Of a stretch of DNA of 64,000 nt, positions 29,689 to 36,649 are shown one piece after another. The notes under the pieces are model-generated. The model saw only the letters and a program-made list of their open reading frames with translations, was not told the origin of the DNA and searched no databases. Positions within the stretch are counted from its first letter, which is position 1. Each line of letters starts with the position of its first letter. The DNA is from Syntrophales bacterium (GTDB taxonomy: Bacteria; Desulfobacterota; Syntrophia; Syntrophales; JADFWA01). The translations under genes were made by a program, and so were the position numbers. Location: the NCBI GenBank assembly GCA_030655775.1, contig JAUSPI010000154.1, forward strand, positions 3,839 through 67,838. Direction: 5' to 3'.

Positions 29689-30948
29689 TTATAGCTCATC
29701 CGGGGCGCCAATCCTGCCCAGAACAGCAGATGCGGCCGCAATCAGAGGATTCGATAGATATACTTCACTCTTCGGATGACCCATTCTTCCTATAAAGTTT
29801 CTATTAGTTGTTGATAGTGCCTTTTCACCTTCAGCCAGGACACCCATATGTCCTCCCAGGCAGGGCCCACAACAGGGGGGACCAATCACGGCGCCGGCAT
29901 CGAGGAGCGCTTCAATAATCCCTTCCTGTATCGCTTTCTTGTATATCCAGGGAGACCCCGGTATAACTATAAGCCTCAGGCCGCGGGCAACTTTTCTTCC
30001 CTTTAAAATGCTTGCCGCATCACGCAAGTCTTCCAGCCAGCCGTTCGTACAGGATCCGATAAATACCTGATCGAGCGAAATGTGCCCCACCTTTGAAACA
30101 GGATAAACATTTGCCGGTGAGTGGGGAAATGCAACCTGCGGCTCAATTTCATCCACCATTATCTTCACTGTTTTTTCATACTTTGCATCACGGTCCCCTT
30201 TTACGATTAAGGGTTTTTCAGAAGATCTTTCCGCAACGTACTCTAAAGTTATTTCGTCCGGCTCTATAATCCCATTTTTCCCCCCGGCCTCCACAGCCAT
30301 ATTGGCCATTGTAAACCTTTGAGACATCGGAAGTTTTTTTATTACTTCACCCGCAAACTCGAGCGCACAGTAAAGAGCGCCTTCCACACCCAGTAAACCG
30401 ATAGTATAGAGGATCAGATCCTTGCCCACTACATTGGGCGGCAAGCTGCCATCGTATTCCACCCTGATGGTTGGAGGCACCTTCAGCCATATCTCGCCCG
30501 TCGCCATGACGGCACCCAGATCGGTACTGCCGACCCCCGTAGAAAATGCACCCAGAGCTCCGTATGTACACGTATGACTATCAGCACCGACGATCAGTTG
30601 TCCGGGCAAGACGAGTCCCTTCTCAGGGAGTATGACATGTTCAATCCCTGATTCACCACCCTCAAAGTAATTTTTTATCTCATGTTGTCCGGCAAAGTCA
30701 CGCATCAGCTTTACCTGCTGGGCCGATGGGATGTCTTTGTTCGGAACAAAATGGTCGGCTACCAGAGCTATCTTTTCGTTATCGAAGACTTTTTTTGTTC
30801 CAATCTTCTCGAATGTTTCGATTGCAAGGGGGGCTGTAATGTCATTGGCAAGCGCCATGTCGACTTTTACTTCTATTAAATCTCCAGGAGAAACCTTATC
30901 TACCCCTGCATGGAGCGCCAGAATTTTTTCTGTAATCGTCATTGGCAT
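29689..30948 (-). CDS. leuC: 3-isopropylmalate dehydratase large subunit
   Basis: 419 aa aconitase-family protein, with Cys ligand contexts (DSHTCT, GSCTNG, CGPCLG). Confidence 0.9.
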   Translation of the reverse strand: MPMTITEKILALHAGVDKVSPGDLIEVKVDMALANDITAPLAIETFEKIGTKKVFDNEKIALVADHFVPNKDIPSAQQVKLMRDFAGQHEIKNYFEGGESGIEHVILPEKGLVLPGQLIVGADSHTCTYGALGAFSTGVGSTDLGAVMATGEIWLKVPPTIRVEYDGSLPPNVVGKDLILYTIGLLGVEGALYCALEFAGEVIKKLPMSQRFTMANMAVEAGGKNGIIEPDEITLEYVAERSSEKPLIVKGDRDAKYEKTVKIMVDEIEPQVAFPHSPANVYPVSKVGHISLDQVFIGSCTNGWLEDLRDAASILKGRKVARGLRLIVIPGSPWIYKKAIQEGIIEALLDAGAVIGPPCCGPCLGGHMGVLAEGEKALSTTNRNFIGRMGHPKSEVYLSNPLIAAASAVLGRIGAPDEL

Positions 30949-31049
30949 GTCTGTTCCCTTCTCTCCTGCTTATTTTTATGGAGGTTCGACTCATATCAAA
31001 AGGATAAAAAAAGTCAACCGATTTTCAACGTCAGAAGATAAAAGATACC

Positions 31050-32597
31050 TTACTCAGCTTTAACATCTTTACGGTTATACGCTTTAAGGGATTCAAGTCT
31101 GTTTAAAGCGTTTATATACGCCTTGGCGGATGCCACAAGGACATCGGGATCTGTACCACGTCCTACAACTGAACGTCCATTGTATTTGAGTTGAACAGTA
31201 ACCACTCCCTGGGCATCTGTTCCCCCTGTTATCGCATTTACCGCGTATCTGAGGAGAGGGTGGCTTGTCTTCGTAATTTTCCTTATGGCAGCGATGGTCG
31301 CATCAACAGGGCCCACTCCAAAACCTGCCTCCTGTATCACCTCTCCGTCTATCTCCATCTGAACAGTCGCCGTTGGAATTGTCGCACTACCACTGACAAC
31401 GTTAAGATAAATCAATTTGTATTTCTCAGGTTTTCTGAATATATCATCAGAAATAATAGCTTCAATATCCTCATCAAATATCTCTTTCTTGACGTCTGCA
31501 AGCTCTTTGAATCGTTTAAAAATTTTGCCAACTTCCTCGTCGTCAAAATCATACCCCATCTTTTTAAGGTGTTCTTTCATCGCATGGCGACCCGAGTGTT
31601 TCCCCAGAACAATTTGGGTATCTGATACTCCCACTAATTGCGGGGTCATAATTTCATAAGTAGCCTTTTCCTTGAGCAGGCCATCCTGATGAATACCGGA
31701 TTCATGAGCAAAGGCATTTGCTCCCACAATTGCCTTGTTCGGCTGAACAGGTATACCGGTTATATCTATTAACAGCCTTGACGAGTGATAGATTTGCTCA
31801 GTCTTGATATTTGTATAAAGTCCGAAGAGGTCTTTCCTCGTTTCCAGAGACATAACAATCTCTTCGAGGGAAGCGTTTCCTGCCCGCTCCCCTATACCGT
31901 TTATAGCACACTCTACCTGTCTTGCCCCATGCTTCAGAGCAGACAGCGAATTCGCAACCGCCACACCGAGATCATTATGGCAGTGAACCGATATGATTGC
32001 ATTGCCAATATTTTTTACATTCTGAAAAAGATATGCTATTAATTCGCCGAATTCATCAGGCATGGCATATCCAACAGTATCGGGAATATTAACTGTGGTA
32101 GCTCCTGCAGCAATAACAGTTTCCACCATCTCACAAAGATAGCTTTTATCCGTTCTCGTTGCATCCATGGCCGAAAACTCCACGTTTTTCGTAAAGGCAC
32201 GGGCATGTTCCACGGCGGTACGGGCATCTTTTAGAACCTGCTCACGTGTCTTTTTTAACTGATGCTCGAGATGTATGTCAGATGAAGATATGAATGTGTG
32301 AATTCTGGGATTCGCCGCATCTTTAACTGCTTCCCATGCCCGATCAATATCTGCAAGATGTGTTCTGGCAAGTGCTGCAATCTGAAGGCCTCTGATCTCC
32401 CGGGCAATTTGCTGAACCGACGCAAAGTCCCCTTCCGAGGCAACCGGAAATCCAGCTTCAATAATATCTACACCGAGCCTTTCTAATTGCCTGGCAAATC
32501 TCAGTTTCTCCTCCATATTCATACTGAAACCAGGGGACTGTTCTCCATCTCTGAGAGTCGTATCGAATATGAAAACTTTATCTTTGTCCGATTTCAT
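31050..32597 (-). CDS. leuA: 2-isopropylmalate synthase
   Basis: [14 protein letters not shown] and [13 protein letters not shown] blocks, plus a C-terminal LeuA dimerisation/regulatory domain. Start set to ATG 32597 (GGAGGT 7 nt upstream) rather than 32612. Confidence 0.9.
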
Positions 32598-32612
32598 TAT
32601 TTTTACCTCCAT

Positions 32613-32655
32613 CTAAAAATAAAAAGGCCATGGGCTTTGCCGCCCATGGCCTTTT
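32613..32655 (-). terminator. intrinsic terminator/attenuator immediately upstream of leuA
   Basis: Minus strand GGCCATGGGC, 6-nt loop, GCCCATGGCC, followed by TTTTTATTTTT. Confidence 0.65.
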
Positions 32656-32678
32656 AGTACTGTCTTGTTTTTATTAGT

Positions 32679-32792
32679 TCATCCTCTTATACAAACGGCG
32701 GGCGGCGGGTATAAGACACCTGTAAGGCTCAACAAGCACAAAAGCAGAAGGCCGTTTAAGTTAGATAGGTCTCTCTTCACACCACACATCAT
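32679..32792 (-). CDS. candidate Leu-rich leader peptide (37 aa) of leuA
   Basis: My translation gives MMCGVKRDLSNLNGLLLLCLLSLTGVLYPPPAVCIRG. 10 of 37 residues are Leu, four of them consecutive. Confidence 0.45.
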   Translation of the reverse strand: MMCGVKRDLSNLNGLLLLCLLSLTGVLYPPPAVCIRG

Positions 32793-32825
32793 CTTATAAA
32801 AATCCCCCGACATAAAAGTCTCAGC

Positions 32826-32854
32826 AGATTAAAATAAAAGAATATGGATGTCAA
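32826..32854 (-). promoter_or_regulatory. sigma70-like promoter of the leuA leader
   Basis: Minus strand TTGACA (32854..32849), 17-nt spacer, TAATCT (32831..32826). Directly after the cimA stop. Confidence 0.5.
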
Positions 32855-32863
32855 TTGTTTTTT

Positions 32864-34438
32864 TTACTTTTTTCCCTTACTCAATTTATATTGTATGCTG
32901 TCCACAAGGGCATGCCAGCTCGCCTCAATAATGTTTGAGGAGACCCCGATTGTGTTCCAGATTTCATCTTCATCCCTCGACTCCACCAGAACCCTTACTT
33001 TTGCCGCCGTTCCATCGGTTCCTTCCAGGATCCTCACCTTGAAATCCACCAGGTGCATCTTGTCAATTTCAGGATAAAATTTTCTTAACGCTTTCCTCAG
33101 GGCACTATCAAGGGCATTTACGGGACCATTCCCCTCTGCGGCTGTTATCTCTTCCTTTTCTCCGACCGATATCTTAATCATTGCCTGGGATTTGGATGAG
33201 CTTTCTTTTGTTTTTTCGTCGATGACACGGAAGGACTCCAGGACAAAAGGTTCCTTAAACTCACCCGTCACTTTTTTCATCAGTAGAGCAAGTGATCCTT
33301 CAGCAGCTTCAAACTGGTATCCCTGATCTTCCATGTTCTTTATCTCCTGAACAATTTTATTGCTATTGGAGACATCTTCTCCTAAAGAGATATTCAGCTC
33401 TCTCGATTTGTATTCTACATTGCTCCTTCCGGAGAGGTCTGAAATTAATACCCTCCGGTGGTTTCCCACGAGTTCAGGTTCAATATGTTCATAGGCTACA
33501 GGATTTTTTGAAATGGCGCTTACATGAATACCGCCTTTATGAGCGAATGCGCTTTTACCAACAAAAGGACTTGAATTAAGAGGGGGAATATTCGCTACAT
33601 CACTTACATAACGTGAGAGATTCGTAAGCTGTCTGATCGACGTCTCGGGCAGACACCTCTTATTCATTTTTAACTGGAGGTTACTGATTATAGAAATTAA
33701 GTCGGCATTTCCACACCTTTCTCCATAACCGTTTATCGTTCCCTGGACCATTCTTACTCCTGCCTCAACAGCCGACAGGGAATTGGCCACCGCAAGGTCG
33801 CAATCATTATGTACATGAATGCCTAAGAGGTGAGGAGGGATGGACGGGACAATTTCACTTATTATTTTAACCAATTCTCCATTAAGGGTACCTCCATTGG
33901 TATCACAGAGGACAATTATATCGGCACCGGCAGAGAGAGCCGTTTGAACGGTCTTGAGGGTATATTCAGAGTTATTTTTATATCCATCAAAGAAATGCTC
34001 GGCATCGTAGATTACTTCTTTTCCTTTCGATTTCAGATATTCAATGGTTTCTTGTATCATTAAAAGATTTTCCTTTAACGATACCCCGAGAATCTCAGTT
34101 GCGTGAAGATCCCAGCTTTTTCCAACAATTGTGACAGCCAGTGTTTCTGCATGAAGCAGGGCTTTCAGGTTCGGGCAATCCTCAGGAGAAGAATTGACCT
34201 TCCTGGTACTTCCAAAAGCCGTAAGGCGGGCATTTTTAAATTCCACATCCCGTGCAAGCTGAAAAAAGCGTATATCTTTCGGATTTGACCCCGGCCATCC
34301 ACCTTCGATATAATGAAAGCCCATATCATCCAGTCTACAAGCGATCCGCAATTTATCCTTTGCGGAAAAGTGGATGTTTTCTCCCTGCGCTCCGTCTCTC
34401 AAGGTTGTATCATAAATCAGCACATCCCATTTTTTCAT
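32864..34438 (-). CDS. cimA: (R)-citramalate synthase
   Basis: 524 aa LeuA-family enzyme with IYDTTLRDGAQGENI, the N-terminus typical of CimA-type enzymes. Placed ahead of leuACDB. Confidence 0.8.
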   Translation of the reverse strand: MKKWDVLIYDTTLRDGAQGENIHFSAKDKLRIACRLDDMGFHYIEGGWPGSNPKDIRFFQLARDVEFKNARLTAFGSTRKVNSSPEDCPNLKALLHAETLAVTIVGKSWDLHATEILGVSLKENLLMIQETIEYLKSKGKEVIYDAEHFFDGYKNNSEYTLKTVQTALSAGADIIVLCDTNGGTLNGELVKIISEIVPSIPPHLLGIHVHNDCDLAVANSLSAVEAGVRMVQGTINGYGERCGNADLISIISNLQLKMNKRCLPETSIRQLTNLSRYVSDVANIPPLNSSPFVGKSAFAHKGGIHVSAISKNPVAYEHIEPELVGNHRRVLISDLSGRSNVEYKSRELNISLGEDVSNSNKIVQEIKNMEDQGYQFEAAEGSLALLMKKVTGEFKEPFVLESFRVIDEKTKESSSKSQAMIKISVGEKEEITAAEGNGPVNALDSALRKALRKFYPEIDKMHLVDFKVRILEGTDGTAAKVRVLVESRDEDEIWNTIGVSSNIIEASWHALVDSIQYKLSKGKK

Positions 34439-34456
34439 TAGTATTAACCTCCCTCA

Positions 34457-34499
34457 AACTAAAAAATCCGTTACCAGTGAACCTGATAACGGATTTTTA
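34457..34499 (-). terminator. intrinsic terminator/attenuator immediately upstream of cimA
   Basis: Minus strand 12-bp stem ATCCGTTATCAG/CTGGTAACGGAT (one G-U pair), 5-nt loop, then TTTTTT. The GAGGGAGG RBS follows. Confidence 0.65.
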
Positions 34500-34528
34500 T
34501 GCTAAACAGTTAAAACACTACACCATTA

Positions 34529-34591
34529 TCAGGTCTCCCATGCATTGGGCCTAATTATCCCGCATATAATGGCAATAGTATTTTTAAACAT
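34529..34591 (-). CDS. candidate Ile-rich leader peptide (20 aa) of cimA
   Basis: My translation gives MFKNTIAIICGIIRPNAWET. Five Ile fall within eight residues. Confidence 0.45.
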   Translation of the reverse strand: MFKNTIAIICGIIRPNAWET

Positions 34592-34716
34592 GTTGATCTT
34601 TTTATCCTCTGCTTCTAAATATATTTCACAATATAATTTCATTTTCCGTTTGTCAAACAAAAAATAGGTTTCGTGTTATAATATATGGATAATTCTCTAT
34701 CAAAGAGGTGTGCATT

Positions 34717-34959
34717 ATGAAAGAATTTACTGTCAGCAGGACTAAAGCCTTAAAGGAAAATCTTTATTGTGGCAACTGCGGCACGTGGATATATTGCCCC
34801 GAGATGAACTCCAGGATGGAAAACGAAAAGGGTGAAATAACAGAACAGATTGGGGAAGGCTGTCTACATCAGAATGATAAAGGGGATTTTCTGGAATGCC
34901 CTGATTGTAAGAGCCATTATTATCTGAGTGTAACTACTCAGGTATCCAGTAGTCAGTAG
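34717..34959 (+). CDS. small zinc-ribbon protein (80 aa), uncertain
   Basis: Two CxxC pairs (CGNCG...CPDCK). AAAGAGG RBS. TGtTATAAT extended -10 at 34674-34682. The last ~12 codons lie inside the arm of repeat element D. Confidence 0.4.
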   Translation: MKEFTVSRTKALKENLYCGNCGTWIYCPEMNSRMENEKGEITEQIGEGCLHQNDKGDFLECPDCKSHYYLSVTTQVSSSQ

Positions 34960-35153
34960 TCAGAATAAAAGCAGTATGTAACGCTGACAAATTACTGATT
35001 TCTTCAATTATGAAGCAACATCCTGCACGGCAGAATTTGGGGAACAGACTCTACGTCATTCGATGTTTAAAGCCTTTTGCTGGACGGTTTTTATTTTTTC
35101 TTCTGTCTACTGAATTCTTGCTTCTGACTCCTGAGTAGTTACATCTGAGTGAG
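34924..35153. repeat. inverted short-tandem-repeat element D (arms with GTAACTACTCAGG and CAGTAGT units)
   Basis: Left arm 34924-34965 and right arm 35101-35153. They share an exact 13-bp inverted core plus imperfect flanks. ~135-nt core. Confidence 0.75.
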
Positions 35154-35206
35154 TAATCCAGGGAAATAAAGCACAGGATATAAGGGGGCAACCCTCCATC
35201 CTTCTG

Positions 35207-36649
35207 CTATTCTTCTTCGGCATTTTCTATAGCAAAAGTGTTTCTGTCTGATAATTGCACTGGGCGTGAAGACCTGTCAATACTTTCCAGCGTATCAATA
35301 TCGCTTCCAGTTGAAACCCCCAATTCTTTAAACTTGCGTGCAGCAACGAGAAACCGCCCTTCAAAAGAACCGACTGCCTTATTGTAATTATCAACCGTTC
35401 TATCCAGATTTTTTCCTAAATTTGAGAAATGACCGGCAAGGGTGGCTATACGATCATACAATGTTTTCCCAAGATTGCTTATCTCCTGAACATTTTCCGC
35501 AATCTGTTCCTGCCTCCATCCATAGGCAACAGCCCGCAACAGAGCAATGAGTGTCGTCGGAGTGGCCAAAATCACGCGCCGATCCACACCGAACTCTATC
35601 AAACTCGGGTCTTGTTCAAGTGCCGCACTGAAAAAAGTTTCACCCGGCAAAAAGAGAACTACAAAATCGGGAGTCGGATCAAACTGCTCCCAATACGTTT
35701 TTGTACTGAGCTGCGATAGATGCGTGCGGATATGGCGTGCGTGATCTTTAAGTTTTTTCAGCTTAGCCGTTTCGTCTTGCGTCTCCAATGCTTCAAGGTA
35801 GGCTTGCAATGGAGCTTTGGAGTCTACCACTATATTTTTGCTGTTGGGAAGCTTAATGACCATATCCGGCCTCAGTCGGCCGTCTTCAGTTGTAACCGAT
35901 TCCTGCTGAATAAAATCACAGTATTCAATCATTCCGGCAATTTCAACCACCCGTTTAAGCTGTATTTCACCCCAACGACCACGAACCGTTGGAGTTCGAA
36001 GTGCCTTTACAAGATTAGCCGTTTCACTCTGAAGCTGGATTTGTGTGGTGGCGAGTGATCTTACTTGTTCGGTCAGGGTGGAATAGGCGGTAGTACGGGA
36101 TTTTTCTATTTCGTGAATTTTGCTGTCAACCTTTTCCAGGGATTCTTTCAATGGTTTAACGAGTTCGTCTATTGCCTTCTGGCGCATTTGTAAATCACCT
36201 TTGGCGCCTTCCTGAAACTTTTCAAGTGTTTCTTTCGCCAGTTCTAAAAAGGATTGATTATTACTTCTAAGCGCGTCCAGCGATAGTGCTTTAAAAGCAT
36301 CGGTTAATTTCTGCTGCGCTTCATTAAGAAGGGCAAGCTTTTCTTCAGCAGCCTTACGTTCTTCATGAAGTCTTGTTTCAAATTCTGACAGTTTTGTCTT
36401 GAGTTCCGTATTTTCACCTTGGAGTTTTATCGCAAATTCTTCTCTCGCCCTCATAACTGATTCGAGGTTTTGCAATTGTTCTTCCCTGTTTTGAAGCCGC
36501 TCAGTAATAGTAGACTTCTCGACCTGACCCTCCAGTTTTACCCTTTCAATAGTACCCTGGTTCTTTTGTTTAAGAACAAGAAAGGTTAATGCGCCCCCGG
36601 ATAAGATTCCAACAAATACTAAAATCAAAAACAAAATAATATTTTCCAT
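35207..36649 (-). CDS. rmuC: DNA recombination protein RmuC
   Basis: N-terminal TM helix, long coiled coil, and a C-terminal RmuC nuclease-like region. ATG 36649 is preceded by GAGGA. Confidence 0.8.

Follow-up and report, generated by a model that had tools for sequence, protein, structure and literature searches.

Several kinds of leader have been described upstream of leuA, the 2-isopropylmalate synthase gene, and these are the closest counterparts of the element analysed here, a leader between cimA and leuA in a 64 000-nucleotide stretch (the window) of a contig from a Syntrophales bacterium (GenBank JAUSPI010000154.1, positions 3839 to 67 838). In the leuL leader of Escherichia coli and Salmonella, which we take to be Rfam Leu_leader (RF00512), a short open reading frame (ORF) with a run of four consecutive Leu codons is followed by an intrinsic terminator before leuA, an antiterminator shares the 5′ arm of the terminator and a ribosome terminating at the stop codon is positioned to mask the antiterminator. 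Logic of the leuL type has been found independently in other proteobacteria, and Enterobacteria also carry the multivalent ilvGMEDA and ilvBN attenuators. Leu-rich leader peptides are known from Firmicutes, both before leuA in Streptococcus (PMC5314783) and in the ilv-leu attenuator of Staphylococcus aureus (PMC5794164). A T-box (RF00230), an element that lacks an ORF and directly senses uncharged tRNA, was reported upstream of leuA in Geobacter (PMC2700814). The actinobacterial LEU element is a pseudoknot in which a Leu-codon run pairs with the Shine–Dalgarno (SD) box of leuA, with no obvious terminator (PMC1262725).

The leuA leader of the window is most probably a ribosome-mediated (leader-peptide) transcription attenuator that ties transcription of leuA-leuCDB to charged tRNA-Leu. 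Three defining features of this class were found, namely a Leu-enriched upstream ORF, an intrinsic terminator before leuA and an exclusive antiterminator that could be masked by a terminating ribosome, and four consecutive Leu codons are present as in leuL. A leuL-type attenuator had been proposed in a first-pass annotation of the DNA, and this reading was supported by the anatomy of the leader, its conservation in a family, its coding signature, its mutually exclusive structures and the negative Rfam searches. All of the leader elements listed in that annotation were located between cimA and leuA at the minus-strand coordinates that it gave (Table 1), among them the 37-codon ORF with 10 Leu and the hairpin of the terminator with a T run after it. 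The leader is classed as leuL-like in its probable mechanism and not as a member of the homologous enterobacterial leuL family.

LeuA relatives were taken from species-representative genomes and metagenomes. The closest belonged to Syntrophales, Smithella and Syntrophaceae metagenome-assembled genomes (70–78% identity), and most of the closest loci shared one layout: a TTGAC box, a Leu-rich ORF of 26–47 codons, a conserved GCCCRTCGTTTTTAGG block at the 3′ end of the ORF and a terminator. A covariance model (R1) was built from 30 leaders. It matched 52 loci at 39–98 bits, all on the leuA strand and directly 5′ of leuA in Syntrophales/Smithella-type genomes and metagenomes; the window copy scored 66.6 bits. 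Counts made leader by leader cover 51 leaders. No LeuA relative nearer than 76–78% identity was found in the genome and metagenome scans, so the sub-lineage of the window is represented only by the loci L081, L082 and L026. The leader was missing from the loci of more distant LeuA proteins (Syntrophorhabdia, Desulfobacterales and others).

The leader frame was free of stop codons in all 51 leaders, compared with none and 10 for the two alternative frames. The window leader has Leu at 10 of its 37 codons, an enrichment over the 9.0% Leu content of 28 long window ORFs (binomial P = 0.0012), and the mean Leu content of the leaders was 27.5%. Besides the core listed in Table 1, its Leu codons are at 32768..32766, 32759..32757 and 32714..32712; the closest peptides are those of L081 (MTGGMERGLLDLRGLLCLCLTGVPYLPLVVFRREE) and L082. 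Conservation of the ORF and its Leu run before leuA orthologues, suggested in the first pass as a check, was observed in 51 of 51 leaders, though L026 has only four Leu. In a codon alignment of the relatives the four most conserved core columns were 97–100% Leu, with an entropy of 0 at codon position 2 and of 0.9–1.35 bits at position 3 and with C and T alternating at position 1 (CTN/TTR swaps; in one such column CTT 11, CTG 9, TTG 7, CTC 2). Variation confined to synonymous changes at these positions reads as the signature of selection for Leu codons and, together with the frame that is open throughout, provides indirect but strong evidence that the leader is translated.

The 3′ end of the ORF behaved differently from the core. 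In the main group the last six codons (RPSFLG) are conserved at each of their three positions, a pattern that suggests constraint on the RNA there. The frame in which the conserved RNA arm is read in the window, L081, L082 and L026 differs from that of the main group (YPPPAVCIRG, YLPLVVFRREE etc.), and their stop codon is at the same alignment position despite the frame difference; in 50 of 51 leaders the stop codon is 23–28 nucleotides (nt) before the terminator. Since the C-terminal frame varies and the position of the stop is fixed, the C-terminal peptide sequence would not be under selection, and the selected feature appears to be a ribosome that reads the Leu codons and then stops at a fixed place. 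The PPP motif pointed out in the first pass was considered as a stalling signal and rejected as a conserved feature: it is absent in the closest relatives, L081 and L082, and the run in the window is a by-product of reading a GC-rich RNA arm in one frame.

The same alignments bear on the reading of the ORF as a real small hydrophobic protein or an active nascent peptide, with the hairpin as its ordinary or partial terminator. The peptide is hydrophobic and of about membrane-helix length, and the main-group core LLxLLLGLALL[RC]LLL keeps its Gly and Ala through synonymous changes. However, the C-terminal third is read in two frames in different lineages, the window peptide is strongly unlike the main-group core, and the ORF, which invariably accompanies leuA, overlaps the antiterminator. 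Searches of Pfam and NCBIfam with the leader peptides gave no match at E ≤ 10. A small-protein function is considered highly unlikely.

Alternative RNA structures, for which the first-pass annotation had advised a test, do exist as a mutually exclusive terminator and antiterminator, and both are conserved. The terminator (arms AAAAGGCCATGGGC and GCCCATGGCCTTTT, 32655..32622) was the sole terminator-like site in a scan of 30500..35500; none of 200 shuffles was as good as its energy of −27.0 kcal/mol (z −5.99). In the family (consensus GGCCRTGGGC-loop-GCCCAYGGCC plus a T run) 88.8% of cells were paired and five pairs showed compensatory changes. The antiterminator consists of 17 bp between regions 2 and 3 (−20.8 kcal/mol, z −2.26), and the leader's stop codon starts 7 nt past the end of region 2. 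The pairing proposed earlier, GCCGCCC (32706..32700) with GGGCGGC (32645..32639), is exactly complementary but is only the core of this long-range helix.

In the family helix the 3′ end of the ORF pairs with CCUAAAAGGCCRUGGGC (the terminator 5′ arm plus a few upstream bases), and the homologous region 2 arm GCCCRUCGUUUUUAGG is kept at all three codon positions. Removal of the terminator 3′ arm left this long-range helix as the fold of lowest energy in about 28 of 30 leaders. From the full-length MAFFT alignment RNAalifold retrieved the terminator alone, because the loop is variable and the antiterminator register differs by one base (CCTAAAAGG versus CCTAAAGG); the covariance-model alignment left that register unfixed, and at four pairs about 20 of the 52 sequences are scored as unpaired. 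Folding and duplex tests that need no alignment took the place of alignment-based detection of the antiterminator, and its duplex beat dinucleotide shuffles in 46 of 51 leaders (median z −2.96). Pairing was nevertheless visible in the alignments: 82.5% of cells were paired in register in the MAFFT alignment against 36–57% when slid, and 82.9% in the 52 model-aligned sequences, where 11 pairs change on both sides (slid-register controls overall 32–58%). L081 and L082 share a three-way compensatory change, with GGG replaced by GAG in region 3, CCC by CTC in region 4 (the terminator 3′ arm) and CCC by CTT in region 2.

The spacing between terminator and leuA ranges over 17–408 nt in the family, which argues for control at the level of transcription rather than at the leuA ribosome-binding site. 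A palindromic repeat resembling repetitive extragenic palindromes (CCCGATAGCC..GGCTACGGGATC, with neighbouring repeated blocks) is present in one to four copies between the Leu terminator and leuA in L004, L008, L011, L012, L014, L015, L016, L020 and L029, some of them Smithella loci, and stretches the spacer up to 408 nt.

The hairpin is a perfect palindrome between an A run and a T run and looks bidirectional, and weak reverse-strand R1 matches were attributed to that palindrome. Such an appearance would suit a chance ORF beside an ordinary or bidirectional cimA terminator, with leuA expressed from a downstream promoter or by leaky read-through. Against this, most of the 52 loci carry the leader without visible cimA sequence in the roughly 330 nt upstream of leuA, and the ORF, the stop position and the antiterminator are conserved in relatives. 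In the window the terminator is 200 nt past the cimA stop, beyond the promoter-like site, and the 17–24 nt between the hairpin and the leuA SD box leave no room for a promoter. The coincidence is judged exceedingly unlikely.

In the mechanism that we infer for the attenuator, transcription would start at the promoter just past cimA, or would read through from cimA, and a ribosome would translate the 37-codon leader while RNA polymerase proceeds. Of 51 related leaders, 47 have TTGAC at the corresponding site and 22 have TTGACA/G-17-TAnnnT. From the position of the promoter the transcription start site would be near 32819, and with an end near 32615 the attenuated transcript would be about 200–207 nt long, not about 170 nt as first estimated. 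With ample Leu-tRNA the ribosome would reach the TGA codon (32681..32679) and cover region 2; region 3 would then pair with region 4, the 14-bp terminator would form and transcription would end before leuA. With scarce Leu-tRNA the ribosome would stall on the Leu core, and region 2, left free, would capture region 3 once this is made, so that no terminator forms and the polymerase reads into leuA-leuCDB. If the leader is not translated, region 2 would probably pair with the leader start region and termination would be the default.

This last pairing was seen in the full-length minimum-energy fold of the window, where candidate region 1 pairs with 32707..32685 (20 bp) alongside the formed terminator. 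For 88% of the 51 leaders, the upstream segment that pairs best with region 2 overlaps the start codon of the leader (for example UAAAAACGAUG with CAUCGUUUUUA), and L015 has a compensatory CAATG/CATTG change. An anti-antiterminator helix between regions 1 and 2 is no more than plausible from these folds. Because region 2 seemingly pairs with the ribosome-binding and start region of the leader and not with the regulatory codons, and because Gly and Ala are kept in the main-group core, it was considered whether the family is more than a codon counter, with the nascent hydrophobic peptide influencing ribosome progress or release or with the switch gating leader initiation. Such an extension is unlikely. 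If the switch did gate initiation, the result would be a design in which one 'pioneer ribosome' integrates both the capacity for initiation and the supply of Leu-tRNA.

A second attenuator-like leader was found upstream of cimA (Table 1). Its 20-codon ORF contains five Ile and no Leu, and its region 2 is exactly complementary to an arm of its terminator. Upstream of cimA in L001, L013, L026, L081 and L082 there are Ile-rich homologues that share its terminator (peptides such as MNLISIIIISGIIIIGGTYTA), and the cimA leaders have few Leu (0–4). Weak R1 matches at L045:293-450 and L049:278-438 correspond to related leaders with mixed Leu/Ile/Val peptides, for example MDQVGLILVVVIAQLLGLLLVLVLRNCPLPGRRGDPV; the downstream genes are ilvB-ilvN-leuA in L049 and, by sequence similarity, in L045. 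Further leaders of mixed Leu/Ile/Val type were located at L064:~691, L068:~1078, L073:~1200, L120:~306, L132:~719 and L159:~698, a second example of a mixed peptide being MSWFVNNIIIVIISATGILITLLRGLLLVKAKRPGLIMAK. Leu codons are thus found before the Leu-specific synthase, Ile codons before the Ile-specific synthase and Leu/Ile/Val codons before the shared first enzyme. Codon content that tracks the downstream gene is predicted by ribosome sensing and not by an RNA-only or protein-only sensor. The mixed leaders suggest that branched-chain amino-acid genes of Thermodesulfobacteriota are widely under leader-peptide control.

In two Syntrophales loci (L001:1385-4551 and L013:1393-4536) cimA lies immediately next to leuA and no Leu leader separates the two. 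The sole leader there is the Ile-rich one upstream of cimA, which also has three or four Leu codons.

Rfam was searched for known RNA families. At gathering score there was no match in the whole window or in 16 homologous loci, and in 32300..33200 there was no T-box or leucine-leader match at E ≤ 10. The only matches in that interval at E ≤ 10 were chance matches to small RNAs driven by the hairpin and were rejected. As a positive control, the same search gave T-boxes upstream of leuA in Desulfuromonadales relatives (Table 1), in agreement with the Geobacter report. The searches bear out the first-pass remark that no T-box core is visible, and no Rfam family was found that would explain the region in another way.

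Several observations weigh against ribosome-mediated attenuation. The SD-like box of the leader (GGGGGA, 32808..32803, 10 nt from the ATG) is weak. The promoter TTGACA-17-TAATCT of the first-pass annotation is present, but its −10 box has only three of six consensus bases and was not listed by the promoter scan. The Leu codons of the leader showed no bias towards rare codons, and plain codon sensing does not need the Gly and Ala that the main-group core keeps at the amino-acid level. The helix between regions 1 and 2 beat shuffles in just 33% of leaders (P = 0.2 for the window). L026 has its four Leu in 34 codons, and leader-like ORFs upstream of ilvB and leuA in Streptomyces did not behave as classical attenuators on mutation (summarized in PMC1262725).

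The last two points, and the stronger conservation of the RNA arms than of the peptide C-terminus, would also fit a real terminator/antiterminator switch set by a protein, uncharged tRNA or a small molecule, with the ORF irrelevant or secondary; in L026 the RNA elements are preserved although Leu codons are few. This explanation is improbable, as no T-box or riboswitch was matched in Rfam at E ≤ 10 even though T-boxes were detected in relatives. The ORF is moreover open in every leader with synonymous-site variation at its Leu codons, the stop codon is fixed relative to the antiterminator arm, and the switch to Ile codons before cimA and to Leu/Ile/Val codons before ilvBN would not be predicted by an RNA-only sensor.

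The L026 element itself (L026:2817-2921) retains the RNA switch at 46 bits despite its few Leu. It may be a decaying or a differently tuned attenuator.

The proposed attenuator differs from leuL in several respects. No homology to curated leuL models was found by sequence or structure (Rfam, Pfam and NCBIfam, E ≤ 10), the Syntrophales ORF is longer, with 5–9 Leu (three in L026) in its densest 12-codon window, its likely anti-antiterminator partner is the region where translation of the leader itself starts rather than the Leu codons, and the hosts are Syntrophales as opposed to Gammaproteobacteria. The Leu-rich leaders of Firmicutes follow the same logic but are independent and non-homologous, with other sequences in another phylum. 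Like the present leader, they were found by terminator/antiterminator prediction combined with a Leu-rich upstream ORF; the Streptococcus cases are backed by Term-seq, whereas the Syntrophales leader is known from comparison. The T-box of Desulfuromonadales and Geobacter shares with it the target gene, conditional termination before leuA, the tRNA-Leu charging signal and a host of a related order, and differs in its direct sensing of tRNA. The actinobacterial LEU element likewise has a Leu-rich upstream ORF before leuA. The Syntrophales leader differs from it in having a strong terminator and a spacer of variable length, and with repeat insertions in that spacer a LEU-type pairing is unlikely as a conserved mechanism of the family. 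The L045 and L049 leaders, with their mixture of Leu, Ile and Val codons upstream of ilvB-ilvN-leuA, resemble the ilvGMEDA and ilvBN attenuators; the window leader, in contrast, is almost exclusively Leu and precedes leuA alone.

The mechanism is of a textbook kind and would be a modest surprise to the specialist. Related anaerobic lineages would control leuA differently in response to the same signal, by a leader peptide in Syntrophales-type genomes and by a T-box in Desulfuromonadales. The family, with 52 examples and a working covariance model, is an RNA element not covered by Rfam. The codon content of the leaders offers an independent means of separating the paralogous 2-isopropylmalate and citramalate synthases, and the Ile-only leader before cimA supports isoleucine synthesis by the citramalate route in these uncultured syntrophs. 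The literature searched yielded no account of attenuation by a leader peptide in Syntrophales or upstream of citramalate synthase (Lopatovskaya et al., 2010, which possibly covers Deltaproteobacteria, was outside that search).

Table 1. Positions of the leader elements, neighbouring genes and related leaders (window coordinates unless a locus is named)
Feature	Position	Strand	Description	Basis
Candidate sigma-70-type promoter	32826..32854	minus	TTGACA 32854..32849, 17-nt spacer, TAATCT 32831..32826	read from sequence
Candidate region 1 (anti-antiterminator)	32780..32801	minus	covers leader start codons	full-length minimum-energy fold
Leader ORF	32679..32792	minus	37 codons + TGA, peptide MMCGVKRDLSNLNGLLLLCLLSLTGVLYPPPAVCIRG; alternative in-frame ATG at 32813	sequence; homologous ORFs open in 51/51 leaders
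Leu-codon core	32724..32750	minus	CTT CTG CTT TTG tgc TTG TTG agc CTT, 7 Leu in 9 codons	codon list
Region 2 (antiterminator 5′ arm)	32689..32706	minus	GCCGCCCGCCGUUUGUAU, in last codons of ORF	folding without terminator 3′ arm
Region 3 (antiterminator 3′ arm)	32639..32660	minus	GUACUAAAAGGCCAUGGGCGGC, overlaps terminator 5′ arm and loop	17-bp helix
Intrinsic terminator	32613..32655	minus	14-bp stem (32655..32642 with 32635..32622), loop GGCAAA, T run to 32615	terminator scan, folding
leuA (2-isopropylmalate synthase), proposed regulated gene	31050..32610 including SD; coding sequence 32597..31050	minus	SD GGAGGT 32610..32605, ATG 32597	NCBIfam NF002086, 795.6 bits
leuC, leuD, leuB	downstream of leuA	minus		NCBIfam LeuC, LeuD, LeuB models
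cimA	34438..32864	minus		NCBIfam
Second candidate attenuator, upstream of cimA	34439..34656	minus		sequence elements
cimA-leader promoter	34656..34628	minus	TTGACA-17-TATTGT
cimA-leader ORF	34591..34529	minus	MFKNTIAIICGIIRPNAWET
cimA-leader region 2	34533..34523	minus	CCTGATAATGG
cimA-leader terminator arm	34492..34482	minus	CCGTTATCAGG
cimA-leader terminator	~34498..34461	minus
T-box leaders	L069:2591-2815, L072:2623-2845, L078:1590-1815		upstream of leuA	Rfam, 117–120 bits

The gene order on the minus strand, assigned with NCBIfam, is an RmuC-like gene, a gap of 770 nt, cimA, a spacer of 266 nt, leuA, leuC, leuD and leuB. In the program-made ORF list leuA begins at ATG 32612, but the start given in Table 1 is indicated by homologues and by the GGAGG box (32610..32606). 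An ORF of 83 amino acids with two Cys pairs (CGNC ... CPDC), zinc ribbon-like, is present on the plus strand at 34708..34959, in antisense orientation inside the gap that separates the cimA leader from the RmuC-like gene.

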